In this document: positions 764 through 28,146 of the stretch, one piece after another
Numbering within the stretch: position 1 is the first letter of the stretch
How the letters are laid out: every line of letters begins with the position of its first letter
Origin: Desulfuromonadales bacterium
GTDB lineage: Bacteria > Desulfobacterota > Desulfuromonadia > Desulfuromonadales > SZUA-540
Direction of reading: 5' to 3'
Length of the DNA stretch: 28,146 nucleotides
Assembly (NCBI GenBank): GCA_033549025.1
Contig: JAWSUS010000033.1
Location: 1 to 28,146 of the forward strand
Translations under genes and position numbers: made by a program
The notes under the pieces: model-generated
Database searches by the model: none
What the model saw: the letters and a program-made list of their open reading frames with translations, nothing else
What the model was told of the DNA's origin: nothing

Positions 764-1804
764 TCAGGGTCCAAGAGTAGAGCGTACTTTTTGCAGGTAG
801 TCGGGGCCAATTTTTGCTCCCCAGGACTGATAGACAGGCGCAGCCATCTCGACCAGGCGGGCCCGGTCTTCGGCCGACAGGGCGAAAAACTCAACACCCT
901 TGGCCTTGGCGTCGGCCACCTGCTCGTCATGCTGGATTCTGGTGCGGTCGCGCGAGGCGGCGCTCTCCTCTTCGATGACTTCGATGAGAACGGTCTGCAG
1001 ATCCTTCGGCAGTTTGTCGAACCAGCGTTTGTTCATCAGGTGCACGAAAAGCCCTTGGGCGTAGTCGACCTGGGTAAAGTATTTGGCGACGTCGAACTTC
1101 TTGGTGATGTTGCACACCGTCGGGGTGTGGTCCAGACCGTTGATGACGCCGGTCTGCAGCGCCTGCGGGACGTCCGGCCAGGGCATGACGGTAAATTTGA
1201 GACCCCAGCTCTTGTAGATATCGGTATTTACCGGCGCCTGGGCAATGCGGAAATTGACTTTTTTGGCATCTTCGAGGGTGCGCACCGGAGTGGTGGTGGC
1301 CCAGCCGTAGGTGCCGTAGCCGGTGATGTCCACGACCATGATGCCGCTGCCCAGTGCGCTCTGCTTGAACTCGCCGAAGAGTTCTTCGGACTGGCGGAAA
1401 CGGTCGAGCTTGTCGAAGCTGTCGACGACGTAGGGCAGGTTGACGATGCCCAGCTTGTCGGCGACGTTGGCGGCGGCCACGGACGAGGAGAGCATCCCCT
1501 GGACGGCGCCCATTTTCAGTTTGCTGATGACATCCTTCTCGCCGCCAAGCTGGGAGAGGGGGCGAAAGTCCACATAAAGGCGGCCGCCGCTGCGCTCCCA
1601 GACCTTGTCGCGAATGCGGTAGCCAACCCCGACTCCTTCGATGGCGGGGTGCGACACATTGGAGAGGATGTAGGTATATTCGGCCCCTTTTGGGTCAAAA
1701 GCGGGCTTCCAGGCGGCCAGGGGGTCTTTGGAATCTGCGGCCAGGGCAGCTCCCCCCCAGGTCAGGGCGACGAGGGTCAATAAAGCCGTAATGAACGTTT
1801 TCAT
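764..1804 (-). CDS. dctP: TRAP transporter substrate-binding protein (DctP family), paralog 1
   Basis: Signal peptide MKTFITALL...ALA. Motifs QLGGEKDVISKLKMGAV, NLPY, FRIA (conserved Arg) and MPWPDVPQALQTGVING. Start placed at ATG 1804 because AGGAG lies upstream; the ORF track extends to 1858. Confidence 0.92.
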   Translation of the reverse strand: MKTFITALLTLVALTWGGAALAADSKDPLAAWKPAFDPKGAEYTYILSNVSHPAIEGVGVGYRIRDKVWERSGGRLYVDFRPLSQLGGEKDVISKLKMGAVQGMLSSSVAAANVADKLGIVNLPYVVDSFDKLDRFRQSEELFGEFKQSALGSGIMVVDITGYGTYGWATTTPVRTLEDAKKVNFRIAQAPVNTDIYKSWGLKFTVMPWPDVPQALQTGVINGLDHTPTVCNITKKFDVAKYFTQVDYAQGLFVHLMNKRWFDKLPKDLQTVLIEVIEEESAASRDRTRIQHDEQVADAKAKGVEFFALSAEDRARLVEMAAPVYQSWGAKIGPDYLQKVRSTLGP

Positions 1805-1856
1805 AAAAACTCCTGTGGCAGAAAAAGGGACAAGCATGAGCCTGAAATGAAAAATC

Positions 1857-1885
1857 ATGCTATTACAAACCCTGTTTTAAGGCAA
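1857..1885 (-). promoter_or_regulatory. Putative sigma70 promoter for dctP paralog 1
   Basis: Minus strand TTGCCT-17 bp-TAGCAT in an AT-rich intergenic region. Confidence 0.5.
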
Positions 1886-1954
1886 AGAAATTTTAGAAGA
1901 AAAGTTCGTAAAAACAGCAGTTTTGGGGGTATGGAAATTTTTTTGGGGAGGTGA

Positions 1955-2006
1955 AACGAAAAAACCCCGGATGGCAAAAAGTCTTTCTGCCATCCGGGGT
2001 TTCGTT
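1955..2006 (-). terminator. Rho-independent terminator after dctP paralog 2
   Basis: Stem ccccggatggca (1965-1976) / tgccatccgggg (1988-1999), followed on the minus strand by a T-run. Confidence 0.85.
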
Positions 2007-2024
2007 ATTGGCGATAGGTGCGAG

Positions 2025-3074
2025 CTATTGGCCCAGCGTCTCGCGCACTTTTTTCAGATAATCGGCGCCGATCCTTTCGCCCCATTTCTGGTAAACGGGT
2101 TCGCTCTGTTTAATGAGCTGCTGGCGGTCGGCTTGGGACAGGGTAATAAATTCGACGCCCTGTCCCTTGGCGGCCTCGATCTGCTCCTCCTGCTGTTTCA
2201 TGGTCAGCGCACGGGCCTTGGCGCTCTCTTCGGCAATGACCTCCAGCATGATCGTTTGCAGATCGGCGGGAAGGGCCTCGAACCATTTCTTGTTCATGAG
2301 GTGGATGTACAGCCCCTGGGCATAGTCGAGACGGGTGAAGTATTTGGCCACATCGAATTTATTGGTGATGCTGCAGACGATAGGGGTGTGGTCGAGGCCA
2401 TTGATGACGCCGGTCGCCAGGGCCTGGGGTACATCGGGCCAGGGCATGACGGTAAATTTAAGGCTCCAGGCTTTGTAGATGTCGGCATTGACCGGGGCTT
2501 GGGCCACCCGGAAATTGGTGTTTTTGGCGTCCGTCAGGGTGCGGACCGGCGTGGTGGTGGCCCAGCCGTAGGTACCATAGCCGGTGAAATCAACCACCTT
2601 GACCCCCTGGGCCTCGGCGCTCTGGCTGAATGGGCCGAAGAGTTCGGGTTCGTTGCGGAAGCGCTCCAGTTTATCGAAACTGTCGATGACGAAGGGAAGA
2701 TTCACGATGCCGAGGGTGCTGGCGACATTGACCGCGGCCACCGAAGAACAGAGCATCCCCTGCACGGCCCCCATTTTCAGTTTGCTGATGACATCCTTTT
2801 CGCCGCCCATTTGGGCGAAGGGGCGAAAATCCACGTAGATCTGACCGTTGCTGCGTTCCCAGAGGCGATCCCGAATATGATAGCCGACGGCAATACCCTC
2901 GATGGCAGGATGGTCCACGTTGGAGAGGATATAGGTGTATTTGGCCCCGCTGGGATCGAACTTCGGCTTCCACTGGTCCAGCAGCTCCTGCTGACTGGCG
3001 GCCGCAGCCAGGGACCCGGTCAGGCAGAGAAAGAGTAGAGTAAGAGGCAGGATCAGTCGCACATGGTTTTTCAT
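2025..3074 (-). CDS. dctP: TRAP transporter substrate-binding protein (DctP family), paralog 2
   Basis: Signal peptide and the same DctP motifs (QMGGEKDVISKLKMGAV, FRVAQAP, MPWPDVPQALATGVING). It is colinear with paralog 1. Start placed at ATG 3074 behind AAGGGGG. Confidence 0.92.
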   Translation of the reverse strand: MKNHVRLILPLTLLFLCLTGSLAAAASQQELLDQWKPKFDPSGAKYTYILSNVDHPAIEGIAVGYHIRDRLWERSNGQIYVDFRPFAQMGGEKDVISKLKMGAVQGMLCSSVAAVNVASTLGIVNLPFVIDSFDKLERFRNEPELFGPFSQSAEAQGVKVVDFTGYGTYGWATTTPVRTLTDAKNTNFRVAQAPVNADIYKAWSLKFTVMPWPDVPQALATGVINGLDHTPIVCSITNKFDVAKYFTRLDYAQGLYIHLMNKKWFEALPADLQTIMLEVIAEESAKARALTMKQQEEQIEAAKGQGVEFITLSQADRQQLIKQSEPVYQKWGERIGADYLKKVRETLGQ

Positions 3075-3128
3075 AGAAACCCCCTTTTCATGGTCGGACA
3101 CTGCAGCAACAAATCGTCATGACCAAGA

Positions 3129-12878: not shown

Positions 12879-14519
12879 CTAATGTAAAGGGTGCGCCGGG
12901 GCCTGGGCAGCCGCCTCGCCAGCGGGGTCGTAAAAGAGAATCTGGTCGTTCGCTTTCTCCTTGGCCTGATACATGGCCTGGTCGGCCACGCGCAGCAAGG
13001 AGCCGGCGTTGGCGCCGTGATCAGGGAAGATGGCGGCGCCGATGCTCGGCCTGGCCGAAAGGTTGAGGCCGTCGAGGGAAATAGGGCGGGAGAGGCTGTC
13101 GACAATCTTGGCGCCGATCTCCCGGACGACTTCGATGTCCTGGATGCCGGCAATCACCACGACAAACTCATCGCCGCCGAGGCGCCCGACCGTATCCGTG
13201 GCGCGAACGCAGCTTTTCAGCCGTCTGGACACTTCCTTGAGCACCATGTCCCCCTTTTCGTGGCCGAGGGTGTCGTTGATGGCCTTGAAACCGTTCAGAT
13301 CGAGAAAGAGGACGCCCACCTTGAGTTCGTCCCGTCGGGCCCGGCCCAACGCCTGGCTTAGACGGTCCAGCAGCAGCAGCCGGTTGGGCAGGCCGGTGAG
13401 GGAATCGAAATAGGCCAGCTGCTTGACCCTCAGCTCGGCGTTTTTGCGCTGGGTGATGTCTTTTTTCACATGCACCACATGAACGATCTTCCCTTCCTTG
13501 TCCCTGACGGGCGAGGCGGAGATTTCGGCATAGCGAAGATGCCCCTGCCGATCCTGGTAGGCATGTTCGATCTGGCAGTGTTCGCCGGTCTCCAGCACCA
13601 GGCGCAGAGGACAAGGTTTGTCGGCCGCGTCGCAGGGGGCTGAACCCTGGCAGGTGAATTCAGCACATTTTCTGCCGATAATTTCATGCTCTTCTTTGCC
13701 CAGGCTATGGAGAAGCACGTTGTTGGCGCCCAGCAGGATCCGGTCTTCCACATCGATGATGGCAATGGCATCGTTCATGCTGTTGAGGATGGTGCGGGTA
13801 AAGGCGAGAGAGCGTGAGAGCGACTCCTCGCTTTCGAGAAGGGCCGTTTCGATCTGATGGCGGCTGGTGACGTCCCGGAAGATGCCGCGGGACGAAACCG
13901 CCCGCCCGTTTTCGAAGCGAAAGTTGCAGTTGCCTTCGACCCTGACGGCGCGCCCGTCCTTGCTGATGAACTGAAATTCGCCGCACTCCTCGCTTTGTCC
14001 CTCCTGCAGGCGCTTAAAAATGCCGAGGCAGTGGCTGCGGCTGTCCGGGTGAATAAAGTCGAGCATGTTCAGCTGGCGGAGTTCTTCCTCCTCGTAGCCC
14101 AGGGCCTGCCGCCAGGCGCGGTTGGCATAGAGGATGCGGCCGTCGGCGCTCACGCACTGGATGAGGTCGTTGGCGTTCTCGAAGAGATCGCGGTAGCGTT
14201 CTTCGCTTTCACGCAGGGAGTCCAGGGTGCGGCCTGCCTGCTGGACTCGCCTGCCGGTCCACGCCCCGATCAGGCCGCCGGCCAGGCCGGAAATCCACAG
14301 ATGGCTGAACAGGATAGGTTCAGGATGCAGGAAATATTCATGGGCCAGGGTCAGCAGGCAGAGCAGCAGCGCGCCCCCCAGCGTAAAGAATACGTATGTA
14401 TATTGTTTACTATTTATTTGCATAAAGCGATCAAGGGATGACATCGATCTATCCTTTGGGACGGGCTGAAAGAAGGTGTATACCCTAGTGTTTTTGTGGT
14501 CAATGGCGGATACTGCCAC
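12879..14519 (-). CDS. Membrane-anchored PAS-PAS-GGDEF diguanylate cyclase (start uncertain; ATG 14444 or 14423 also possible)
   Basis: Two N-terminal TM helices and two PAS/PAC domains (IHPDS..RDVT; KDIT). Also DSLTGLPNR, DLNGFKAINDTLGH..GD, an intact GGDEF motif and an RxxD I-site (RATD). Confidence 0.92.
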   Translation of the reverse strand: MAVSAIDHKNTRVYTFFQPVPKDRSMSSLDRFMQINSKQYTYVFFTLGGALLLCLLTLAHEYFLHPEPILFSHLWISGLAGGLIGAWTGRRVQQAGRTLDSLRESEERYRDLFENANDLIQCVSADGRILYANRAWRQALGYEEEELRQLNMLDFIHPDSRSHCLGIFKRLQEGQSEECGEFQFISKDGRAVRVEGNCNFRFENGRAVSSRGIFRDVTSRHQIETALLESEESLSRSLAFTRTILNSMNDAIAIIDVEDRILLGANNVLLHSLGKEEHEIIGRKCAEFTCQGSAPCDAADKPCPLRLVLETGEHCQIEHAYQDRQGHLRYAEISASPVRDKEGKIVHVVHVKKDITQRKNAELRVKQLAYFDSLTGLPNRLLLLDRLSQALGRARRDELKVGVLFLDLNGFKAINDTLGHEKGDMVLKEVSRRLKSCVRATDTVGRLGGDEFVVVIAGIQDIEVVREIGAKIVDSLSRPISLDGLNLSARPSIGAAIFPDHGANAGSLLRVADQAMYQAKEKANDQILFYDPAGEAAAQAPAHPLH

Positions 14520-17083: not shown

Positions 17084-19018
17084 CTACCAGAAGAGGTTCC
17101 AGTTCAGGCCGGCATCGGTCAGGTAGCGTCCATGGACCTTCTGCCTGGATAGAGTCAGGGTCAGGCTGCTGGATCTTCCCGTCACCAGGGTCTGGTCCAG
17201 CCGGGCCTCGCCGCTGCGGTGAGGCCCGCCCGCTTCGTGCCAGATGTGCCGGGCCGCGGCATGGATTTTCCAGCGGTCGGCCAGGTTGACCAGCACCCCC
17301 AGAGAACCACCGCCCCCCAGAGCGAAGCTGTCGCGAAAGTGTCCTGAAACCAGCAGCTCCGTTTCCACCATGCCGTATCCCAGCACGGCGTCGTTGCCAT
17401 AGCTGAATCCCCCCCCAGGCGACAGCTCGTAGACCAGGTGGTCGCCGCCGTCATCAGCTGGCCACTGAATGAGGCCGGTCTTCACTTTCCAGGAAATCGG
17501 TTTGAAAAAACGGCTGCGAGGTGACAGGGAGACAATCTCGATGAGATTGAGGTTATGGAGTCTGAGCCTGTTCTCCTCGGGATAGTAGCGCAGCACCAGG
17601 TCGGCGAAGTCAATCTGCGAGCCGGCGATGTAACCGGCGTCGGCATCGAGCAGGTTGTGGTAGGCCGGACGGATTTTGGCCTGCAGATAATAGTCGTCGG
17701 CGCGAAAGCCGGTGCCCAGGCTGAAGCGGTTGGAACCATGCCCCCGATCGGGGCGCAGGGGCTCCTGCCAGTCGGGCTCGGCGCTGGCCGCTCCCAGCTT
17801 GCTGCGGGCGGTAAGCAGCGAGATATAGCGGGTGCGGTATTCATCCTGGCCGAGCTGTTTCTTGAAGTAGCTGAATTCGACCGATTCCGTGGCCAGATCC
17901 AGCGCCCGGATCTGAGCCGCCTGGTTCAGCCCGGCCTCCTCCAGTTCCGTCGGACCAATGCTGCCGTCGAGCAGGCGCAGGGTGGTCTTTTGCTCCTCGT
18001 CGTTCATCTGCGCGGCGATGCGCGCGATACGGGTGGCTTTGGAGGGGCGGTAAAGGCTCGACTCGATCAGTCCCTGCTGGCCAACGATCCGCACCGTGTC
18101 GATAGGGATGACCCAGGGACGGGTGTGATCGGTGAGCCGCAGGCCGGGACGGGCCGCCTCCAGCAGGAAGAGGAGCTGGTAGGCGCAGTTTTCATCGAAA
18201 AAGAAGTAATCCGAATAGATGTCCTTCAGTTCCCAGGTGTGCAGAAACATGCGTCGCGTTTCGTCCGCGTCGAGGTTGAGCGGATATTCCCAGACGTCCC
18301 GCCGTTCCAGATCCCGATATTCCCGCAGCTTCTGATAGTAGGGAAGGACCGAGAAGTAGCCGCGATACAGGCCGAAAATCCCCTTGACCGCATAGGCGAA
18401 GCCGTTGGTTTCATCCGTAAAGGCGGAATAGTTGACGGCGTAGGAGAGCAGCCGGCTCTTGTAGGGGCCTTCGATAATGATCAGGGTGTGCCCGAACATG
18501 GAGGCGGGGCTGTTGTTGTGGGTGCCGGGAAAGATGAGGACGGCCGAGCGGGGATCAACCTGGTCAAGGGCCTCGTCGAGTTCACTGCAGGTGACGGCCG
18601 GAAAATCGTCGTCCTCGGCTCCTAACTGCTCCTTCAGCCATTCATAGCGGGCGGGAAAACGGCAGCGGGCCGGAAGCTGGTCGGAAGAGGATGGTTCAAA
18701 GAAAGCCTGCAGGGTGGCGTCCAGTTCCGCCTGGGCATCCCATTTGCCGTTGTCGGCCACAAAGAAGGCGGGGTCATCGATCAGACTGCCAAGCCCCCGC
18801 AGAGAGGGGCGATAGTGCAGCAGGGTGAGCCAGTAGGGATCCTGGTGAAGCTGCTGCTGACGGGCGCGTTCGCGCAGACCTTCAGCGCTGTTGTCGGCGG
18901 CCCGGGCGGCCGAGCCGACAAAAAACAGGCACAGAAAAAGGGCAAGGCCCGGGAGAATGAAAATCCCGAGCCCGCCCTTTTCAGGTGCCTGTACGGTGTC
19001 GTAAAAAACGAAACGCAT
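17084..19018 (-). CDS. DUF4105 (Lnb N-terminal-like) domain protein with a probable C-terminal beta-barrel
   Basis: Signal peptide, W..LLHY, CRFPAR..WL, PASMFGHT, Y.FFDENCAY and YRPS. The C-terminal part has alternating-strand character and ends WNLFW. Confidence 0.82.
   Translation of the reverse strand: MRFVFYDTVQAPEKGGLGIFILPGLALFLCLFFVGSAARAADNSAEGLRERARQQQLHQDPYWLTLLHYRPSLRGLGSLIDDPAFFVADNGKWDAQAELDATLQAFFEPSSSDQLPARCRFPARYEWLKEQLGAEDDDFPAVTCSELDEALDQVDPRSAVLIFPGTHNNSPASMFGHTLIIIEGPYKSRLLSYAVNYSAFTDETNGFAYAVKGIFGLYRGYFSVLPYYQKLREYRDLERRDVWEYPLNLDADETRRMFLHTWELKDIYSDYFFFDENCAYQLLFLLEAARPGLRLTDHTRPWVIPIDTVRIVGQQGLIESSLYRPSKATRIARIAAQMNDEEQKTTLRLLDGSIGPTELEEAGLNQAAQIRALDLATESVEFSYFKKQLGQDEYRTRYISLLTARSKLGAASAEPDWQEPLRPDRGHGSNRFSLGTGFRADDYYLQAKIRPAYHNLLDADAGYIAGSQIDFADLVLRYYPEENRLRLHNLNLIEIVSLSPRSRFFKPISWKVKTGLIQWPADDGGDHLVYELSPGGGFSYGNDAVLGYGMVETELLVSGHFRDSFALGGGGSLGVLVNLADRWKIHAAARHIWHEAGGPHRSGEARLDQTLVTGRSSSLTLTLSRQKVHGRYLTDAGLNWNLFW
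18934..18982 (-). terminator. Terminator-like hairpin inside the 5' end of the DUF4105 gene
   Basis: Minus strand GAAAAGGGCGGGCTCGGGA-loop-TCCCGGGCCTTGCCCTTTTTC followed by further T-runs, about 35 nt after the DUF3015 stop. Confidence 0.5.
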
Positions 19019-19485
19019 TAACCAGCGATGGTGATGATGCTGTCGATCACGTCGGCGCTGCTTTCCTGACCGGTGACGAAAATCTGGTCGAAATTGGACT
19101 GCAGGCGGCTGTAGAGGTTGGCGCGCTCAGCGGCAGGAACTTCCAGCAGCTCGGCGAGAGTCTCGAGGGTTTCGCCGCCGCCGGCAGCGATGTCACGAGC
19201 CAGGGGGTCGAGATTGTCGCGGGTGAAAGCGAGGGCGCGGTCATTCTTGATGATGTTGGCCGGCTGCTCGCAGCCGAGGGTACCGGAGGTGATGCCGAAA
19301 GTCTGGTTGCCGAAGATGCCGTTGGTGGTCGCCTGCAGGGACTGGGAGATAACGGAGCCGTCCGCCTTGCCTTCCCACAGCAGGGAACCGAGGCCGCAGC
19401 CCGTGTTTCGGTCGGCCTGACCGGCAGCAAAAGCCGTGGTGGCCAGAAGGGAAAGAGCCAGAGTTGCTACGAGAACTTTTTTCAT
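19018..19485 (-). CDS. DUF3015 family secreted protein
   Basis: Signal peptide (AFA), TGCGLG, ATTNG..GNQTFGITSGTLGC, LARDIAAG.GE.L..LA.L and LQSNF..IF. RBS AAGGAGG. Its stop overlaps the next ATG (TAATG). Confidence 0.88.
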   Translation of the reverse strand: MKKVLVATLALSLLATTAFAAGQADRNTGCGLGSLLWEGKADGSVISQSLQATTNGIFGNQTFGITSGTLGCEQPANIIKNDRALAFTRDNLDPLARDIAAGGGETLETLAELLEVPAAERANLYSRLQSNFDQIFVTGQESSADVIDSIITIAG

Positions 19486-19768
19486 GTGTAAACCTCCTTT
19501 TTGATGAAATGGGCGGTGAAAAGGTACCTGACTAATTAAACCTGCTTTAGGCGCAAAGTCAAGTGCCTGTTTTCCCTTGCCCGTTGTGCCATGGGGCTTT
19601 TGTTCCCGGGGCGCGGCAACGGCTGGCGCCCGAAAATGATAGAAATTTAATAGAAAAGTCAGGGGTTTTGGAATGCCTCAGCAAAGTTTTATGGCATAGT
19701 TTATTGGGCGCCCTGAAATGGAATAATGGATTTTTCAGGCAGTCATCGGTCCGGCGCCAGGATAAGCC

Positions 19769-20479
19769 GTGAACTCTTCCACGGATCTCCGTAATTGCAC
19801 GACTTGTCCGCACAGAGACCGCCCCATCGTGATCGTGGGAGAGCGTCGTTTCTGCATGGACATCCTCACGCACTTCATCGCGACACAGACCCCGGCTCGT
19901 TGGAGTCTGGTCCCCTGCCTTCGTGACCTCTCTGCCTTGGGCGGCACCGAGTCCCCTGTACTCCCCCGGCTCATTTTTGTCGATGCCTTTGGTTTTTCGG
20001 GGTCCGACATCTGTGGTTTGCTCAAGCGAGAAGCCCTGCCCTTTCTCGAGAACGAAACCCTTGCGCTCTTCAATCTGGTGCGAAGTCTGACCCCCCTCCT
20101 CGATTTAATGGAGCTGGGCGTGCGCGGATTTTTTTTCGAAGACGACCGGGCCGAGAGTATCCTCAAGGGGATCTGCGCCCTGAAAGCCGGGGAGCTCTGG
20201 GTTTCCCGCGAGGTGATGATGGAATACGTCACCCGCCAGACCAGAACACCCCATGGCGAGGATAAAGCTCATCCCCAGGAGCGGGCGGCGGCCCTGCTGA
20301 CCCGCCGGGAACGGGATGTCCTCGCCCTGATCGCCGCCGGCGCCGACAATGAGACCATCTGCTCCCGTCTTTATATCAGTCCTCACACGGTAAAAACCCA
20401 CCTATACAACATCTTCAAAAAGATCGGTGCCCGCAACCGCCTGCAGGCGGCCCTGTGGGCGGCCCACCATTTGAAATAA
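19769..20479 (+). CDS. LuxR-family regulator of VpsT/CsgD type (degenerate REC + LuxR HTH); start uncertain
   Basis: C-terminal LTRRERDVL..IA.G..NE.I...LYISPHTVKTHLYNIFKKI...NRLQA..WA. REC-like strands (LIFVD, G.RGFF) and a GELWVSR linker. Confidence 0.88.
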   Translation: MNSSTDLRNCTTCPHRDRPIVIVGERRFCMDILTHFIATQTPARWSLVPCLRDLSALGGTESPVLPRLIFVDAFGFSGSDICGLLKREALPFLENETLALFNLVRSLTPLLDLMELGVRGFFFEDDRAESILKGICALKAGELWVSREVMMEYVTRQTRTPHGEDKAHPQERAAALLTRRERDVLALIAAGADNETICSRLYISPHTVKTHLYNIFKKIGARNRLQAALWAAHHLK

Positions 20480-20493
20480 ATCCTGTCTTTCTC

Positions 20494-20566
20494 GGGTTCT
20501 CATCGCCTCTTCCTCAGGCGGCTGTTCTCGCGTCTAAGAAAAAAGGCTGAGGCCGGATGAGAACCC
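20494..20566. repeat. Intergenic inverted repeat between luxR and pilZ
   Basis: gggttctcatc (20494-20504) / gatgagaaccc (20556-20566), with inner cctcag (20512-20517) / ctgagg (20547-20552). Confidence 0.7.
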
Positions 20567-20719
20567 CGCCCCCTGTTTCATCTCTGCGCCTGAGCCAGTG
20601 CCCATTAAAAAACGATAAATAAACCAGCCTCACGCCCGATGGTGTTCCCGCCAGAGTCCGCTAAACCTATCTACATGCAGCAAAAGAGCCATCTGAACAG
20701 AAGCAGGAGTGATCTGCCC

Positions 20720-21040
20720 ATGCCAGCTCCCGAACAAAGAGCTTCTGAGCGCTATCCAACCCAGATGCCCGCTCTTTTGACCTGTCGGGAAGCCGATGAC
20801 CGCCACAGGCACATGCTCTTACTGACCCGGGATGTCTCCAGTACCGGTGCCTATTTCCACACCCGGGAACCCTTTTTTGAAGAAGAGGACGTTCAGGTGG
20901 AGATGCTCATCCGGATAGAGTCGGCAGCGGACAATGTTCATCACATGTATCTGGAAACCACGGGTGAAATTACCCGGCGGGATCCCTCCGGCCTGGCCGT
21001 TCGTTTTAAGGGGCCCTACCGGCTGACGCCTTTTGTCTGA
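20720..21040 (+). CDS. Stand-alone PilZ domain protein
   Basis: RxxxR (QRASER) and DxSxxG (DVSSTG) c-di-GMP motifs, with terminal GLAVRF. ATG 20720 lies behind GCAGGAG; the ORF track extends to 20639. Confidence 0.85.
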   Translation: MPAPEQRASERYPTQMPALLTCREADDRHRHMLLLTRDVSSTGAYFHTREPFFEEEDVQVEMLIRIESAADNVHHMYLETTGEITRRDPSGLAVRFKGPYRLTPFV

Positions 21041-21153
21041 GGATTCAGCTATGGGCATTTCGGCAAAGGGGACGAGAAGATCAGACACTCCGGCGTGTTT
21101 ATGCGCTTCCGTTTAACCGAAGGACAGCAATGGAATGAAAGGAGGTACTGACA

Positions 21154-24100
21154 ATGAAGAGGTGTTTATCGTTGGCAATAGGGGGCGTCCTGCTTCTGGC
21201 GTCCGTTATCTCGACGGCCTACGGCAGCGAGGTCCCTCACAAAGGGCCCGGGTTGGTCGAGGCACCCTTGATTACCCAGACTCTGCAGCAGGTCGGCCTG
21301 GTCAGTGTCTGGAACGACGGCGATGAGTTTCATGTCGAAATTGACGGGGCTGGTTCATGGCAGGTCGTTGATGCTTATATCTTCGTCGGCACCGACCCCG
21401 TGCCTGCCACCCAGAAGGGCAGCCTGGTCCCCGGGCTGTTCAACTACAAGAAAGAAGGAATTCTCGCCCCAAGTTATGATCTGGAGTTGAGTCTCAAGGA
21501 AGACCTCGGTTTTAGCTGGGGAATCCCCTACAATCCTCTGAGAATCCAGAATATCGCCGTGCAGGTCTACATGATGGGTGTGGACGCAAAAGGCAAAAAG
21601 ATCTATGAAGGCGCCTGGGCCTATCCCGGTGAAAGCACAGATTATGTCGATTTCGAGGGGGTCGGCGCCGGCTGGTGGTTCACCTACATGCTGTCGCACC
21701 CGAAACGCGGCCATTTCCACGATGCTCCGGTAGGTGGTTTGTTGTTCGTCGGGGAGACTTTTTCCGGCAAGACCGACCCGACAGGCGGCTTCGACATCTT
21801 CCCTGACGAGACCGTCAGTTTTTACCTCGGCAGCTATCTGCTCGGTACGACAACCGCCGCCCAGCGGGTCACACCGATCGACCTCATCGAACAGGGCGAC
21901 ATCGATAACCCCGCAGTCATCAATATGGCCAGGCTGCTGCAGAGCCTCGACGACGATGGCGATCTGACCAAGGGGATCCAGATCACCTCGCAGGTCATCG
22001 GCCTGCTGGAAACCGTCATGGCCGCCAACGGCTTTGACGCCTTCGACTTTTATAACGACGCGCAGATCGAGACGATCATCACGGAAGTCGTTGCCCTCGG
22101 TGTGGATGACGGGCTGACCATGGTGGCGGTGACGGCCGACGAGGCTCGGGATCACCTCGACAAGCATCTGTCGTCCTCCTACAACCGCAAGAATGTCTCC
22201 CAAACGCCCGATTTGGGCACCAGCAAGGCGAAACTCGATCTGATGCCGGTGCTGGTTCCGGCCACCCGGGCTAACAACGAAGCGACCGGTAGCCTCGACT
22301 ACTACGACGAAAACGGCAACTTCCTCTACTCCCGCGATAAGGTCAAGCCGCTGGTGGCCGTCTATGCCGACCAGATTGAAACGGGGGCTTCGGACGTGTT
22401 CGGCGCCATTTCCAGAGACGACGGCAACACCTGGAAACGCACGAACCTGTCACGCTCCGCCGACCTCAGCTCCATCATCCTGCCGGTGACCGGCGAAGAG
22501 GCTCTGGGCGATGTGCGCAAGCCGAATATCGTGGTCCGCGGCAACCATATCCTGACTGCCTGGACCAGCCATTTCTGCCAGGGCGGCAAGCCGCTCTACT
22601 CCAGAGAGGCCCTGACCGACGACGGCACCTCGTATCCCTATTACGAGGATGACATCTGGGGGGTGGGTGGACCGCAGCTTTCCCACTGGTACGAGGAGGA
22701 AGGCTATCCCGAGGTGGAGCTGCCTTACAGCTGCGTCTGGGCGGCCCGCGGCACCATCGACCCCGACACCGCCGAGATCACCTGGTTCAAGCCCGAACGG
22801 CTGACCTCCGGCCGGCGCGATGCCTACCAGATCTCCATCACCGGCGCGAAAAATGTCGGTTTCGCCATCATCTGGCAGGAAGACCCGGACGGGCTGCGGC
22901 CCGGCTCGGCGGCTGGCCCCGGTCACGGCTGGAGCGGCGCTACCACCAGCCACAAGACCGACATCTGGTACAGCTCGGTCAAGTGGAGCGATTTCGACAA
23001 GATCGACACCCAGTTCTACCCGAACGGCGACCCGGAGCAGGCCATCGACGATCCGGAATGGACCACCAACCGGCCGATGCCGCTGGTGCCTTTCAAGCTG
23101 CCGATGCGCATCTCCGACAACGACATGTGCAACGCCGACACCATGAAGGTCCAACTTGACGAAAACGGTCTTCCGGTTCTGGATGAAAACGGCGATTACA
23201 TTCCGTTGATGGACGAGGAAGGCAAGCACGCCGGGACCCACCGCTACTGCTACGAAGTTCCCGATCTCTGCACCGGTTTCTATACCTTCGATAATAACCA
23301 GGAAGCCGAGAAAAACGTCTGTATCGCCGCCGATACCGCCACGGACAGGCGCCTGCTTGACGGCGACACCGGTGCTTCGCGGCCCAACATCAATTTCATG
23401 CCCTACACCAAAAAAGACGGTACCCAGAGTGCCTGGGTCGTCGTCGCTTACGAAGAGACCAAGGGGGTCGGTGGTGGCGTGCCGGTGTGGGACGACAGCG
23501 ACGACACCACCCATCTGGAGGAGAAGGACAAGCCGGACCTCGGCAAGAATGTCATCTACCACAGCTTTGAATTCATGAGCCCGGACAAGGTCAGTGACGG
23601 GACCATCGTCAACCTGCCCGAACAGGACGCTGCCGGCAATCCGCTCTATCTGGTCGACGTCGATGGCAACCAGGTCCTTGACTGGGAAGGACAGCCGCAA
23701 CTGGCCTACGAGAACGCCCGCCGACCGCGCATGCTGCCCCAGCCCGCCGGCCAGGCCGGACCGTCCAATACCGTGCTGGCGCTGATTTACAAGCAGGGCG
23801 AAGAAGGCAAAGGGCGCCCCTCCGACATCTTCATGCGGCGCATCGTCAACCCCAAGGATGGCCAGAACCCCTATGCTGCCAAGAATCTCGCCACGGGACA
23901 CCAGAACGTCAGCACCGTGACCCCCACCGAAACCTGGATCAATCCGGACTCGGAGCCTGATGCCAATGGGGATGGCACCAAGGTGGTCAAGTGGGTACAG
24001 ACCGAGGCGAACCTCAGCGATGACAGTTCGACCAACCCCTACGAAGACGCCCGCGCCCACCGCGGGATCCTCAAAGGCGACCAGCTGTTCATCGCCTACA

Positions 24101-24828
24101 CCTACACGCCCAACTGGGCGGCCTCACGCAACGCTCACGACAAGTATGACCTGTACATTCGTCGCTCCTTCAACGGCGGCCAGAAATGGGGAACCGACCC
24201 GAACGGCACAGGTCCGATCTGCCACACCGACACGTTCAAGGACTACACCGGGGTAGTCGCCGAAGATGACGAGGAGGCCGGCGACAAGATCCCGTCCTAT
24301 GACGTGGAAACCTGCTTCGAACCAGGCGTCTTCGAGCCCGGCCGCAACATGTCCCGCTTGAAGAACAACAAGGAGAGCACCATCGAACCGCGCCTGGTGG
24401 GCCCGCCCAGCACCTTGGCCACGTCCCCCTACCCCGAGGACAAACAGAATACCGATGTCTTCTACGTGAGCTTCGGAACCGAGAGCAATGTGCCCAAGGC
24501 GCACGGCGAATTCGATGAGGGGAATGAGGGGGCGGATGCCATCCCCGGCGACCTCTTCTACACCCTGACCCGTGATCGCGGCCAGACCTTCTTTATGGAA
24601 GAGTGGGAAGTGAACCCGGACAGCGACGGCAACTTCGCCGGTACCATCGTCGAGCGTTTCCCGTATCTGGCCAAGGGCGATGCGGCCCAGGGTGAGGCGC
24701 AGCTGCGCATCTCCCCGGACGGCTCCAAGTTCTACGCCATCTGGAACGAGAATGGCGTCGATGGCAACGACAGCATGTTCCGGCGCATCATGAGCCCGGC
24801 CTTTCCGCAGAACCGGGCCGGTCAATAA
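21154..24828 (+). CDS. Large secreted acidic Asp-box (BNR) protein, choice-of-anchor O-like, with two extra N-terminal domains
   Basis: RBS AAGGAGG and signal peptide. Asp-boxes SRDDGNTW, SFNGGQKW and TRDRGQTF, plus PERLTSGRRDA and WQEDPDGLRPG..GPG.GWSGA motifs. The family label is from recall, not from a search. Confidence 0.75.
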   Translation: MKRCLSLAIGGVLLLASVISTAYGSEVPHKGPGLVEAPLITQTLQQVGLVSVWNDGDEFHVEIDGAGSWQVVDAYIFVGTDPVPATQKGSLVPGLFNYKKEGILAPSYDLELSLKEDLGFSWGIPYNPLRIQNIAVQVYMMGVDAKGKKIYEGAWAYPGESTDYVDFEGVGAGWWFTYMLSHPKRGHFHDAPVGGLLFVGETFSGKTDPTGGFDIFPDETVSFYLGSYLLGTTTAAQRVTPIDLIEQGDIDNPAVINMARLLQSLDDDGDLTKGIQITSQVIGLLETVMAANGFDAFDFYNDAQIETIITEVVALGVDDGLTMVAVTADEARDHLDKHLSSSYNRKNVSQTPDLGTSKAKLDLMPVLVPATRANNEATGSLDYYDENGNFLYSRDKVKPLVAVYADQIETGASDVFGAISRDDGNTWKRTNLSRSADLSSIILPVTGEEALGDVRKPNIVVRGNHILTAWTSHFCQGGKPLYSREALTDDGTSYPYYEDDIWGVGGPQLSHWYEEEGYPEVELPYSCVWAARGTIDPDTAEITWFKPERLTSGRRDAYQISITGAKNVGFAIIWQEDPDGLRPGSAAGPGHGWSGATTSHKTDIWYSSVKWSDFDKIDTQFYPNGDPEQAIDDPEWTTNRPMPLVPFKLPMRISDNDMCNADTMKVQLDENGLPVLDENGDYIPLMDEEGKHAGTHRYCYEVPDLCTGFYTFDNNQEAEKNVCIAADTATDRRLLDGDTGASRPNINFMPYTKKDGTQSAWVVVAYEETKGVGGGVPVWDDSDDTTHLEEKDKPDLGKNVIYHSFEFMSPDKVSDGTIVNLPEQDAAGNPLYLVDVDGNQVLDWEGQPQLAYENARRPRMLPQPAGQAGPSNTVLALIYKQGEEGKGRPSDIFMRRIVNPKDGQNPYAAKNLATGHQNVSTVTPTETWINPDSEPDANGDGTKVVKWVQTEANLSDDSSTNPYEDARAHRGILKGDQLFIAYTYTPNWAASRNAHDKYDLYIRRSFNGGQKWGTDPNGTGPICHTDTFKDYTGVVAEDDEEAGDKIPSYDVETCFEPGVFEPGRNMSRLKNNKESTIEPRLVGPPSTLATSPYPEDKQNTDVFYVSFGTESNVPKAHGEFDEGNEGADAIPGDLFYTLTRDRGQTFFMEEWEVNPDSDGNFAGTIVERFPYLAKGDAAQGEAQLRISPDGSKFYAIWNENGVDGNDSMFRRIMSPAFPQNRAGQ

Positions 24829-24848
24829 CCTACAGGACCAGGCGTAGC

Positions 24849-24880
24849 GGGGCGGCGGCCACACCGGCAGCCGCCGCCCC
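24849..24880 (+). other. GC-rich stem-loop between the two large paralogs
   Basis: ggggcggcggc (24849-24859) / gccgccgcccc (24870-24880), 10-nt loop, no U-tract. Confidence 0.7.
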
Positions 24881-24921
24881 CACGGATGAGATTTCCCCAA
24901 CAGCCGGTAAAAGGGGGTCAC

Positions 24922-27900
24922 ATGAAGACGTATTTATCGCGATTGCTTCTAGGCATGGGGGTGCTCATGCTGCTGGCAGGCGGGGCTTGGGGCGATGACG
25001 GGCCCATGTTCCGAAGGAATATTTCGAATACGCCAGCGGACGACACAGAGTTCGTGTCATTACGTATGCTGCCGCTTTATGTACCAGCCCAGAGTTCGGA
25101 CGGCACCCTGCTTACGGATGGCATCGACTATTTAACGGCCGATGGTACGGTGGCGGAAACCCGAGACTACGCCCGGCCCCTGATCGCCACCTATCAGGAC
25201 GGGCCCGTTGAATTTATCGAAGAGTACGAAGCCTTTCCCGGCCATGGCGCCCGTGACAGCTATGCCGCGGTGAGCCTTGACGACGGAGCCACCTGGAAAC
25301 GAACCAACCTGTCCAATTCAGCCGACCGTTCGTCCATCACCTTGAAGGACGGCCGCCAGAAAGTTCGTTATCCGGGCGATACCCTGCGCAACTTCCTGGC
25401 TTCGGATGGCAACAAGGCCCTCTTTGTCTGGGTAAGCAAATACTGCGACAGCGGCAGTCCGACCTATGCCATGTCGGACACCGAGAAAGAAGCGGTCTCC
25501 ACCTATCTCGGCACAACGGGGTGCACCGATGGTGATGCCGCGACGCCCTGCCTCTATCTCGACGACCTCTTCGGGGTGGCGGGACAGCAGGGGGTGCAGA
25601 GCGCCGAGGATTTGGCCGAAGAGGGCTATCCCCTGGTGGGCGACTATCCCTATTCCTGTCTGTGGGTCGCTCGCGGGGTTTTGTTGCCCCCGGCGGCTGA
25701 AGGGGAACAGAGCACCTTTGTCTGGTACAAGGCCGAGCGTTTGACTTCGGGTGTACGCAGCGCCGAAAGGGCTGAAGTGGTCTGCGTGAAGGGAGCGGGC
25801 TGCACGGTGACCTGGCAGGAAGATCCGGAGGGGGTTCGACCGGGTCACGGGGACGGCCCCGGTGAAGGATGGAGTGGCGCCATCGCCCACCACCAGACGG
25901 ACACCTGGTACAGCTACATCGACTGGGATGACTTCGACCTGGTCAGCGCGGATGGAACCTACGGCACTTTTTACAACACGACGGGCAGTCTGGCCGAGTG
26001 GGTTGTCGCCAACCCGACGGGAAGCCCCCAGGCCGCCGTGCCCATGTCCATTCCCGTACGCGCAACGGACAACGCCATGTGTGCCGATGCGGACGGCAAC
26101 CTCGACACTCTTGAGGATGATCCTTACTGCTACATGGATTTCAACGGCAACGGGACCCCCGACTTCTGCGCCTCCACAGTGGCGGTTACCATTGAAACGC
26201 CCGAAGGTCCCACCCAGACCGTCAATATGTGTGTCAGCGAAGACGGTCGCCTGATGCGTGGCAATACCGCCTCCACCCGGGCCCGCCTCAGCCTGCATGG
26301 TTATTCGACGCTGGGAGATTACCGCCTTGATCCCGCTGCCTACCCCATCGACAGTGCCTGGGTCTCCTTTACCTACGAAGAGAACAAGGGGCTGGGCGAT
26401 ATCTGCGACGACGGCGACTGCCTCGAACTCACCGATGCCGACAAGCGGGATATGGGCAAGAACGTCTGGTACCACACCTTTGATATGTTCCAACCCGAGC
26501 TCGTCTCTCAGGGTCTGATGCTCAACCAGCCCGCCGTCTATCCGACCGACTGGTCAGATCCGACCAATCTGTTGGATCCCTTACCCCAGTACGGCTACAA
26601 CTTCTGGGCCTTCACGGCTGATCCTGTCTATCAAACCCTGGCGGGTCTGGAGACGACCACACTCTACCAGAGCGAGATCTCTCGCCGTCCCAGTCATATC
26701 ACGCAGGACTGGTACGACGCCGGGCCGAGCGGGACGGTAGCCTTCAACCTGTGGAAGCAGGGAATTATCCGCCGCGGCGGACCAGCCGATATCATGGCCC
26801 GTCGATTCATCATCCCGGAAGAGTTTGACCCAGCCGTGGATAACCCCTACGACTATGCCAATATGGCTTGTGAAAACGCTGATGGCTCCGCCGCCTGGCT
26901 TTACCGCACCGATCTGTCGCAACCGGCCAATCCTCGATATGTCAAAGGATTGTGCGCCGCTCCGGCGATCAACCTGTCGGGCAATACGGTGCTGACCGGA
27001 GAGTCCTGTGATGGTGCCCTCACCTGTCTGGAGGCTTTCCCCTTCAATAGTTATTTTGATGATCTCGCCGGGGGCACAGGGATCTCCAAGATCTACACCT
27101 GGCAGCAGTTTGGCCCCGGCTACGGCGAAGTTCCCGATTTGACCACCAGCAACCTCGATGACCCGAGTTGGGCCAATCCTTATGATATGGCCAAGGGCCA
27201 TCGTGGTTTCCTGGCCGGAGACATGGTCATGGCCATGTACGCCTGGACCCCCAACTGGCATGCTCTGACCGAAGCCAACGACATCGTCAATCTTTATGCG
27301 CGGCGATCTTTCGATGGCGGCCAAACCTGGAGCACTCTGCCGGCGAGCTTTGTCCACACTAACGGCCTGACCTACAGTGGCGATGGCACGACGACTTGTG
27401 AATGGATGGGGCCGATTTCGGAGAAAGCGCCCCTATGTACGACCTATGGGGCCGGGGCGTTTGAGCAGGCTCGTAATCTTTCCCAGCTTCTCGGCTCAAC
27501 GGTGACGGTTCTTGATCCCCGGTTTGCGCCAACCTCCCGCGGTATCACGACGGGGTCGGTCAGCACCTCTTCCCTGCCCGCCGGCTTCTTTGCTCCTCTC
27601 TATCTGGACGATACGCGCGATCCCTCCCGCTATCACATGATATTTGAGACGGGCATCACCAGCGCCTACGATGAAGGTGAAGCTGAGCCTCTGGATCTTT
27701 CCTACAGCCGAGCCGTGGATTGGGGAGACGACTATCTGGTTTTCCAGGACGAGGCCGATTCGGGGACATGCCTGCCTTCAGCCGATAATGAGGACATTTA
27801 TGACCTCAGCGGGTTCTGTAACGAATTTGACGCCCTCGAAGGGAGCCGATTCTCAACCGCCTCCGAGGCGGCCGTGGCCAGCAGCCCTGGCGGACAATTC

Positions 27901-28050
27901 ATGTATGCCGATTGGTATCAGCATGAATTGGATAGTGGCGGGGTCGATGCCTGGTTCCGGCGGGTCATGTACCTGGATGACTACGTCCCCACCGCCGAAG
28001 AGCCGGAGCCTGTGCCAGTGAAACCAGGCAAGCCGAAAAAAGTGAAATAA
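24922..28050 (+). CDS. Second large secreted Asp-box protein, choice-of-anchor O-like, paralog of 21154-24828
   Basis: ATG 24922 behind AAGGGGG; signal peptide ending AWG. Asp-boxes SLDDGATW and SFDGGQTW, plus AERLTSGVRSA and WQEDPEGVRPG..GPGEGWSGA. Cys-rich, with a Pro/Lys-rich C-terminal tail. Confidence 0.75.
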   Translation: MKTYLSRLLLGMGVLMLLAGGAWGDDGPMFRRNISNTPADDTEFVSLRMLPLYVPAQSSDGTLLTDGIDYLTADGTVAETRDYARPLIATYQDGPVEFIEEYEAFPGHGARDSYAAVSLDDGATWKRTNLSNSADRSSITLKDGRQKVRYPGDTLRNFLASDGNKALFVWVSKYCDSGSPTYAMSDTEKEAVSTYLGTTGCTDGDAATPCLYLDDLFGVAGQQGVQSAEDLAEEGYPLVGDYPYSCLWVARGVLLPPAAEGEQSTFVWYKAERLTSGVRSAERAEVVCVKGAGCTVTWQEDPEGVRPGHGDGPGEGWSGAIAHHQTDTWYSYIDWDDFDLVSADGTYGTFYNTTGSLAEWVVANPTGSPQAAVPMSIPVRATDNAMCADADGNLDTLEDDPYCYMDFNGNGTPDFCASTVAVTIETPEGPTQTVNMCVSEDGRLMRGNTASTRARLSLHGYSTLGDYRLDPAAYPIDSAWVSFTYEENKGLGDICDDGDCLELTDADKRDMGKNVWYHTFDMFQPELVSQGLMLNQPAVYPTDWSDPTNLLDPLPQYGYNFWAFTADPVYQTLAGLETTTLYQSEISRRPSHITQDWYDAGPSGTVAFNLWKQGIIRRGGPADIMARRFIIPEEFDPAVDNPYDYANMACENADGSAAWLYRTDLSQPANPRYVKGLCAAPAINLSGNTVLTGESCDGALTCLEAFPFNSYFDDLAGGTGISKIYTWQQFGPGYGEVPDLTTSNLDDPSWANPYDMAKGHRGFLAGDMVMAMYAWTPNWHALTEANDIVNLYARRSFDGGQTWSTLPASFVHTNGLTYSGDGTTTCEWMGPISEKAPLCTTYGAGAFEQARNLSQLLGSTVTVLDPRFAPTSRGITTGSVSTSSLPAGFFAPLYLDDTRDPSRYHMIFETGITSAYDEGEAEPLDLSYSRAVDWGDDYLVFQDEADSGTCLPSADNEDIYDLSGFCNEFDALEGSRFSTASEAAVASSPGGQFMYADWYQHELDSGGVDAWFRRVMYLDDYVPTAEEPEPVPVKPGKPKKVK

Positions 28051-28146
28051 GGTTTATGCGGTAACAAAAAAAGATGGCCTCGCAAAAAACACATTAAACA
28101 CAAGTGGCTGAAATTACATAAATAATAGCAAATTTTGACTTTTAAT

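Follow-up and report, generated by a model that had tools for sequence, protein, structure and literature searches.

The 28,146-nt contig JAWSUS010000033.1 of a Desulfuromonadales bacterium (hereafter the window, which is the entire contig; contig C33 of genome G000) ends in a block of four co-oriented genes that encode a LuxR-type regulator, a stand-alone PilZ protein, and two large proteins of the choice-of-anchor O family (NF040591), which we call type A and type B. We suggest, with somewhat more confidence than doubt, that a CsgD/VpsT-like regulator responsive to cyclic diguanosine monophosphate (c-di-GMP) likely activates pilZ and the type-A and type-B genes, and that the latter encode propellers that are likely exported as surface or matrix proteins. 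A listing of the open reading frames (ORFs) of the window confirmed all four genes in the positions and shared orientation given by the original prediction, an earlier annotation of the same DNA (Table 1). Loci, genomes, and homologous proteins compared in this analysis carry the prefixes L, G, and P, respectively.

The gene order is conserved. The synteny search that the original prediction had proposed found luxR-pilZ-A-B in both Desulfuromonadales and Desulfobulbaceae: in the same-genus locus L036, in L031, L011, and L022 (three of the 29 loci found with type B), and in L041, L042, and L044 (three of the four loci from other strains in a second search), with L044 nearly duplicating L011. 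Departures from this order were also seen: a PEP-CTERM gene sits between A and B in L031; L046 and L113 have luxR-pilZ-A only; in L045 a lone propeller gene follows pilZ and is itself followed by luxR; and L052, L055, and L038 have luxR without pilZ. Types A and B occur together in 14 of the 29 loci, which belong to Desulfobacterota, Chloroflexota, and Gammaproteobacteria. The family is rare: in samples of 400 further genomes each, scores above the NF040591 cut-off were reached in one from the phylum and in 14 from the class, the latter all belonging to this order.

We compared the regulator with known LuxR-type proteins. Its top match among PDB sequences was VpsT (3kln; E 9e-23), whose WLTR aligned to WVSR of the regulator, and its top NCBIfam match was CsgD (NF007505; 91 bits, below the equivalog cut-off of 250). 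The receiver domain is degenerate, as had been predicted: by alignment, the aspartate that closes strand 3 (D72) is kept and the acidic pair and conserved lysine are gone, as judged against what we take to be the receiver consensus. The WVSR predicted at the junction of the receiver and helix-turn-helix domains is indeed there, as a near match only to the motif for binding of c-di-GMP, W[F/L/M][T/S]R, defined in PMC6237807 and PMC13726011. Pocket residues W144, R147, and V154 align to W131, R134, and I141 of VpsT, of which R134 and I141 are essential (PMC3359988), and V154 keeps the hydrophobic character expected at the extra helix. The W and R of the motif are retained in every parsed row of the clade alignment. 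RbrT of Vibrio, which carries WLSR, bound c-di-GMP at 2.47 uM (PMC13726011). Three cysteines that the original prediction did not mention (C10, C13, and C136) are the same in all 10 clade members aligned, as are W144 and R147, and these cysteines possibly form a metal or redox site. CxxC-type LuxR proteins were also seen without PilZ in L106, L107, L108, L110, and L112, where they neighbour secreted proteins of a different kind, also large (400-900 residues) and for the most part lacking a Pfam match.

The PilZ protein matched PF07238 with 31 bits (cut-off, 22.5), and orthologues place its start at Met 20720 (106 residues) rather than at 20639. Both ligand motifs, RASER and DVSSTG, are intact as the original prediction held, and show no variation across the nine orthologues aligned. 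The close PilZ clade was found in six of 401 class genomes, all six among the 15 that are NF040591-positive; five of these six were in the training alignment of the profile, and G599 was not. A structure prediction of LuxR and PilZ with two c-di-GMP molecules gave a median score of 0.09 against a mark of 0.32 and weighs neither way.

The spacer between luxR and pilZ contains an inverted-repeat-like TGAG...TCAT (~20547-20582), a CGAT box (20637), and, near 20662, a hexamer resembling a -10 element. When a spacer profile built from five loci elsewhere, including one from the same genus, was run against the genome, the window spacer was the top match (44 bits). By alignment, the -10-like hexamer is poorer in the window than in relatives, and it has no sigma-70 consensus match; sigma-70 and terminator scans of the window stayed at chance level.

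Further evidence for c-di-GMP control came from the leaders of relatives. Rfam scans, which covered 851,551 bases and left out loci L021, L035, L112, and L114, returned six c-di-GMP-I-clan riboswitches above the Rfam cut-off, all upstream of a choice-of-anchor O unit; for comparison, whole genomes carry five to seven. The aptamer lies between pilZ and the propeller gene in L031, L045, L046, and L113, and before a secreted ORF that precedes the propeller gene in L051 and L054. Among the 14 other NF040591-positive class genomes, six have the aptamer, five have none, and three end before the leader, i.e., it is present in 6 of 11 assessable genomes. Remnants were found at the same site in L011, below threshold (28 bits, E 5e-4), and by alignment in L042 and L044. 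All six aptamers have a G at position 20, which marks the c-di-GMP-specific type (PMC6140456); cyclic GMP-AMP as the ligand is disfavoured because the six have G, not A, at this position. We noted an unannotated secreted protein of 460-520 residues before a divergent choice-of-anchor O gene in L051:7780-9174, L054:1463-2926, and L058:6817-8382, with a c-di-GMP-I-GGC aptamer upstream of it in two of the three loci (L051 and L054).

Related luxR-pilZ pairs stand before matrix genes elsewhere. In NF040591-negative genomes, all four assessable distant PilZ matches have a related luxR just upstream, and all five distant matches head matrix-type genes: five curlin genes and CsgG in L102; a sugar transferase, Wza, and Wzc in L101 and L103; Ig-like and collagen genes in L104; and Wza/Wzc in L105, where pilZ lies at the contig start. 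A tree of 25 LuxR rows left the backbone unresolved (7 of 22 branches starred), so orthology of the curli, exopolysaccharide, and collagen pairs to the window pair is not established. The genome of the window itself offers the setting that the proposed mechanism would require, with 28 ORFs that contain a GG[D/E]EF motif and with 13 PilZ matches, two Wza, and five secretins above cut-off; it has no CsgG. As an observation in its own right, the cluster in L102:4727-13492 (G018, of the order Desulfuromonadales) places a CsgD/VpsT-like luxR and pilZ directly before five curlin-repeat genes and csgG; a 2012 survey of curli systems reported that csgD homologues were missing from the curli loci of deltaproteobacteria (PMC3521004).

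Both large proteins are full-length matches to NF040591 (model positions 1/2-670; 565 bits for type A and 638 bits for type B, cut-off 125) and are the sole copies of this type in the genome. The prediction of two paralogous secreted proteins of over 1000 residues holds, at 1224 and ~1042 residues and with signal-peptide-like N termini recognised by eye, whereas their family had gone unrecognised; aligned with each other, the two share 32% identity across 1042 columns (E 7e-116). Calling them Asp-box proteins was an overstatement, as each has two strict Asp-boxes and the Pfam BNR match is below cut-off. NCBI labels the close homologues P0002 and P0288 choice-of-anchor O, and UniRef labels the homologue P0109 exo-alpha-sialidase. 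A PDB search with the type-B protein sequence found no match, and a type-B profile gave five at E ~0.5, in the Asp-box only. In the Atlas, only unnamed clusters reached at least 0.9; BNR/sialidase clusters reached 0.79-0.82, and the N-terminal part 0.83.

To describe the fold, we modelled mature type B with AlphaFold2 from 119 sequences, which gave a predicted local distance difference test (pLDDT) of 89.9 and a predicted template modelling score of 0.92. The model has eight strand sets that account for only 244 of its 1018 residues, so most of the chain consists of inserted loops and small domains. An unbiased search of 48,161 chains ranked Ika8 first (Z 13.6, root-mean-square deviation (rmsd) 3.0, 317 of 318 residues), then Cdc4, ODA16, TBLR1, and Fbw7, with BamB lower. 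We take Ika8 (a designed protein), Cdc4, ODA16, TBLR1, and Fbw7 to be eight-bladed propellers. The type-B model fits eight-bladed propellers with an rmsd of ~3.0 over 317-335 residues, versus 4.2-6.0 over 257-302 residues for sialidases; sequence identity in these matches was 7-14%. Foldseek ranks sialidases and ulvan lyases first, with TM-scores up to 0.23. A six-bladed GH33 sialidase fold was rejected given the eight strand sets and the better fit to eight-bladed propellers, and we predict from the model that type B is a single eight-bladed propeller with large insertions. The ~320-residue extension of type A comprises a beta-sandwich, a small beta domain, and helices (pLDDT 93); it resembles generic sandwiches, with weak Ig/CBM9-like matches (best Z 7.1), and no Foldseek match at E 0.001.

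Residues R255, E276, D277, D303, R429, E462, E463, K465, R564, and D599, as well as tryptophan, are conserved at blade ends across types A and B; many of them sit at equivalent positions from blade to blade, perhaps for structural reasons. Arg, Glu, and Asp, three of the residue types used by GH33 sialidases (an Arg triad, a Tyr/Glu nucleophile pair, and an Asp acid/base), are among those conserved. Neither large protein of the window contains CxxCH. Two such motifs occur in type A of L009:1221-5498, L016:488-5836, L018:5624-9712, L019:5290-9849, and L020:247-4710, the L019 protein also having two rubredoxin matches, and such a pair could form a di-heme module within a secreted propeller. A shared C-terminal anchor was not found among 120 type-B and 113 type-A homologues; basic tails were seen in 20 and one of these, respectively, and PEP-CTERM-like tails in two.

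How do the parts compare with known systems? As to NF040591, the window proteins are no different from the family, to which this analysis adds a predicted fold, the pairing of A with B, and a regulatory setting. The design parallels that of VpsT and the adhesins Bap1 and RbmC of Vibrio cholerae: VpsT is the top PDB match of the regulator, and Bap1 and RbmC are paralogous secreted eight-bladed propeller adhesins with inserted domains, one of them with extra N-terminal domains (PMC10102183, PMC8295476), as type A has here. However, types A and B are only 32% identical versus ~70% for the Bap1 and RbmC propellers, the genes here are clustered with the regulator and PilZ, and the regulator has a CxxC and a variant motif. 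Bap1 and RbmC, whose propellers carry a beta-prism insert, gave no sequence match to the large proteins and are not among the listed fold matches, which excludes nothing; the parallel is one of analogy, not homology. The regulator also resembles CsgD, its top NCBIfam match, and a related pair heads the curli cluster of L102, but it scores under the CsgD cut-off and this genome has no CsgG. The csg operons are not known to include a linked PilZ. GH33 sialidases and BNR propellers share the Asp-boxes and are nearest in Foldseek and the Atlas, yet fit the model less well than eight-bladed propellers do. Judged from sequence and context, the locus would be a variant of a CsgD/VpsT-type matrix locus whose parts are all of known kinds, with the function of the large proteins read from their surroundings. 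A literature search for "choice-of-anchor O" or NF040591, with most subscription papers and all supplements outside its reach, found no paper on the family, and one on this locus (Desulfuromonas CsgD/curli; Geobacter PilZ/LuxR/c-di-GMP/biofilm) found no description of it.

We propose that, at high c-di-GMP, the regulator would bind the conserved spacer upstream of pilZ and activate a pilZ-A-B transcript, with c-di-GMP acting through the W-x-x-R pocket, the PilZ protein, or both. Many relatives would add a riboswitch as a further layer, without counterpart in this lineage. The large proteins would leave by Sec and probably then by a type II system, after which the propeller may bind an extracellular polymer with its insertions facing surfaces, by analogy with Bap1 and RbmC. 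The original prediction had two c-di-GMP readers gating the expression of a matrix, adhesion, or surface-enzyme pair. Its core, c-di-GMP-linked matrix control, is backed by the riboswitches of relatives and by the matrix genes that related pairs head, whereas dual binding and dual gating are unsupported, the VpsT motif is imperfect, and the large proteins may be adhesins, enzymes, or redox scaffolds. The suggested attachment to insoluble substrates found no support in this analysis.

Several results weigh against c-di-GMP control of matrix propellers. The WVSR of the regulator, with valine at position 2, falls outside the strict motif, and positions 2 and 3 vary among 47 clade rows (8 unparsed; WVAR 10, WVSR 8, WISR 6, WVPR 5, WIPR 3). 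No Rfam riboswitch was found in window positions 19400-21300 at the gathering cut-off or at E up to 10, nor a c-di-GMP riboswitch in the corresponding block of G002, and the relatives that do carry one are not independent: the post-pilZ riboswitch may be one inherited element, and the six overall may be two or three. The spacer profile found no match at four non-propeller luxR-pilZ loci, and those pairs are distant (56-76 bits on the PilZ profile). Nine of the 15 NF040591-positive class genomes are without this PilZ clade, and in Chloroflexota and Gammaproteobacteria the loci show no Rfam riboswitch and have regulators of the two-component type in its stead; c-di-GMP control is therefore lineage-specific. 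G477, which is 98% complete, has the locus and no Wza match. Finally, 24 of the 113 type-A homologues contain CxxCH, as a pair in each of the 10 that were listed, and this suggests a redox role for some family members.

This last point bears on a different reading of the cargo, in which regulation is as we propose and the large proteins, once exported, work as enzymes or redox scaffolds (e.g., polymer-cleaving enzymes or platforms for heme modules), not as structural matrix. We consider it somewhat unlikely. The conserved Arg, Glu, Asp, Lys, and Trp at blade ends, the di-heme-type insert, and the L019 rubredoxin matches would all suit it, as would the ORFs with multiple CxxCH motifs or the subtilase/clostripain genes that adjoin several loci and the sialidases and ulvan lyases that lead the Foldseek ranking. 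Yet the insert is lacking in the window proteins, the top rigid fold matches are non-enzymatic eight-bladed propellers, no sequence relative is found in PDB, the conserved residues that repeat per blade may be structural, and the regulatory slot is elsewhere occupied by matrix genes. A quite unlikely reading, as we see it, concerns the signal: the regulator of this strain would be independent of c-di-GMP, like CsgD, QstR, and BrpT, its three cysteines sensing metal or redox, with the riboswitch gone and PilZ as the sole or a vestigial nucleotide input. The cysteines are indeed invariant while motif positions 2-3 vary and even include proline, and Vibrio proline variants (WLPR) are active without c-di-GMP (PMC6237807); the aptamer missing from the window in the leader alignment and the weaker -10-like hexamer agree with this. 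Set against it are the W and R kept throughout, the serine at position 3 as in c-di-GMP-binding RbrT (PMC13726011), the hydrophobic V154 at the I141 position of VpsT, and the intact PilZ motifs. That chance alone brought the four genes together at a hot spot of integration beside a tRNA, with no regulatory link, is highly improbable: the block does lie 3' of tRNA-Phe, where G001 has unrelated cargo, and the family is patchy in phylum and class, but the same order in two classes at unrelated sites largely refutes it, the spacer is conserved, and the block was lost as one unit.

Extending the reading of a c-di-GMP-controlled matrix locus, one could imagine a portable matrix cassette of Desulfobacterota, in which a cysteine-bearing VpsT-like factor reading redox or metal as well as c-di-GMP, a dedicated PilZ, and often a riboswitch would provide up to three c-di-GMP checkpoints. 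The A/B pair would then be an independently evolved counterpart of Bap1 and RbmC in anaerobes, sometimes with a di-heme module that makes the matrix protein redox-active. We regard this version as unlikely.

The four genes form a dispensable, removable islet that is cleanly absent from a close relative: positions 19694-28058 are exactly missing from G001, of the same genus, which keeps a single TTTATG copy. In G001, G002, and G003 the insertion site is 3' of tRNA-Phe. Compared with G002, the block proteins are 49-72% identical versus 83-98% for the flanking proteins, as would be expected of an exchanged or fast-evolving islet. The type-B ORF spans 24886-28050, its signal peptide begins at Met 24922, and the contig stops 96 bases past the last stop codon. 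The hairpin between the large genes is possibly an mRNA-stabilising element. Four sediment RNA runs contain pieces of the locus as contigs only, at low depth and with flanking genes equally covered, and do not thereby indicate expression.

Table 1. Features of the four-gene block in the window
Feature	Position	Strand	Evidence or remarks
Left TTTATG copy (6-base direct repeat, block edge)	19688..19693	+	In G001 fused straight to the sequence after 28058
CsgD/VpsT-like LuxR regulator, 236 aa	19769..20479	+	Degenerate receiver, CxxC C10/C13, C136, W144-V-S-R147, helix-turn-helix
luxR-pilZ spacer, conserved; candidate operator and promoter	20488..20714	+	Alignment, profile search
Stand-alone PilZ protein with RxxxR and DxSxxG, 106 aa	20720..21040	+	Pfam, motifs, orthologue alignment
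Short leader of the first large gene	21041..21153	+	Site of the c-di-GMP-I riboswitch in relatives, none in the window
Choice-of-anchor O type A, 1224 aa	21154..24828	+	Signal peptide, ~320-residue N-terminal extension, propeller core; NF040591
G+C-rich hairpin without U tail, between the large genes	24849..24880	+	RNA fold
Choice-of-anchor O type B, ~1042 aa	24922..28050	+	Signal peptide; propeller of eight predicted blades, with large insertions; tail rich in Pro/Lys; anchor not recognised; NF040591
Right TTTATG copy of the direct repeat	28053..28058	+	G001 comparison

Other features were noted around the block and its relatives. At the same tRNA-Phe site, G001 carries an island with other cargo (L118:3324-13960) and two partial tRNA repeats; by eye, its ORFs resemble a methyltransferase, a resolvase, and a Fic protein. 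The conserved flank of the window (17084-19485) encodes a DUF3015 protein and a Lnb_N/DUF7840/DUF7843 protein and is divergently transcribed. A PAS-type GGDEF protein (12879-14519; domains by eye) lies 5 kb upstream, outside the islet, and is 93% identical in G002, and a tandem pair of paralogous proteins for periplasmic binding, along with a small transporter subunit (764-3101), look by eye like a tripartite ATP-independent periplasmic (TRAP)-type system. In the Chloroflexota loci L008, L009, L012, L015, and L016, the A/B pair brackets or adjoins a membrane PAS-GAF histidine kinase of ~1000 residues and a regulator of NarL type, and type A is preceded by a short ORF without annotation; the same cargo is here paired with another regulator. 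An extracytoplasmic function sigma factor and small Gly/Ser- or Gln/Arg/Asp-rich secreted ORFs lie downstream of choice-of-anchor O genes in L031:10486-14044, L019:16541-18825, and L057:5271-7082, and genes that by eye are type II secretion or pilus-like adjoin propeller genes in L010, L013, L027, and L031.

For a family that has been named and not yet studied, with proteins of 1000-1900 residues in Desulfobacterota, Chloroflexota, and Gammaproteobacteria, our analysis offers a first hypothesis on structure and regulation. The close relative free of the block, together with relatives with and without the riboswitch, makes the idea directly testable. Transcription factors that read c-di-GMP are little described in sulfur- and metal-reducing bacteria, and the luxR-pilZ cassette is a candidate marker of biofilm-matrix genes in these organisms.

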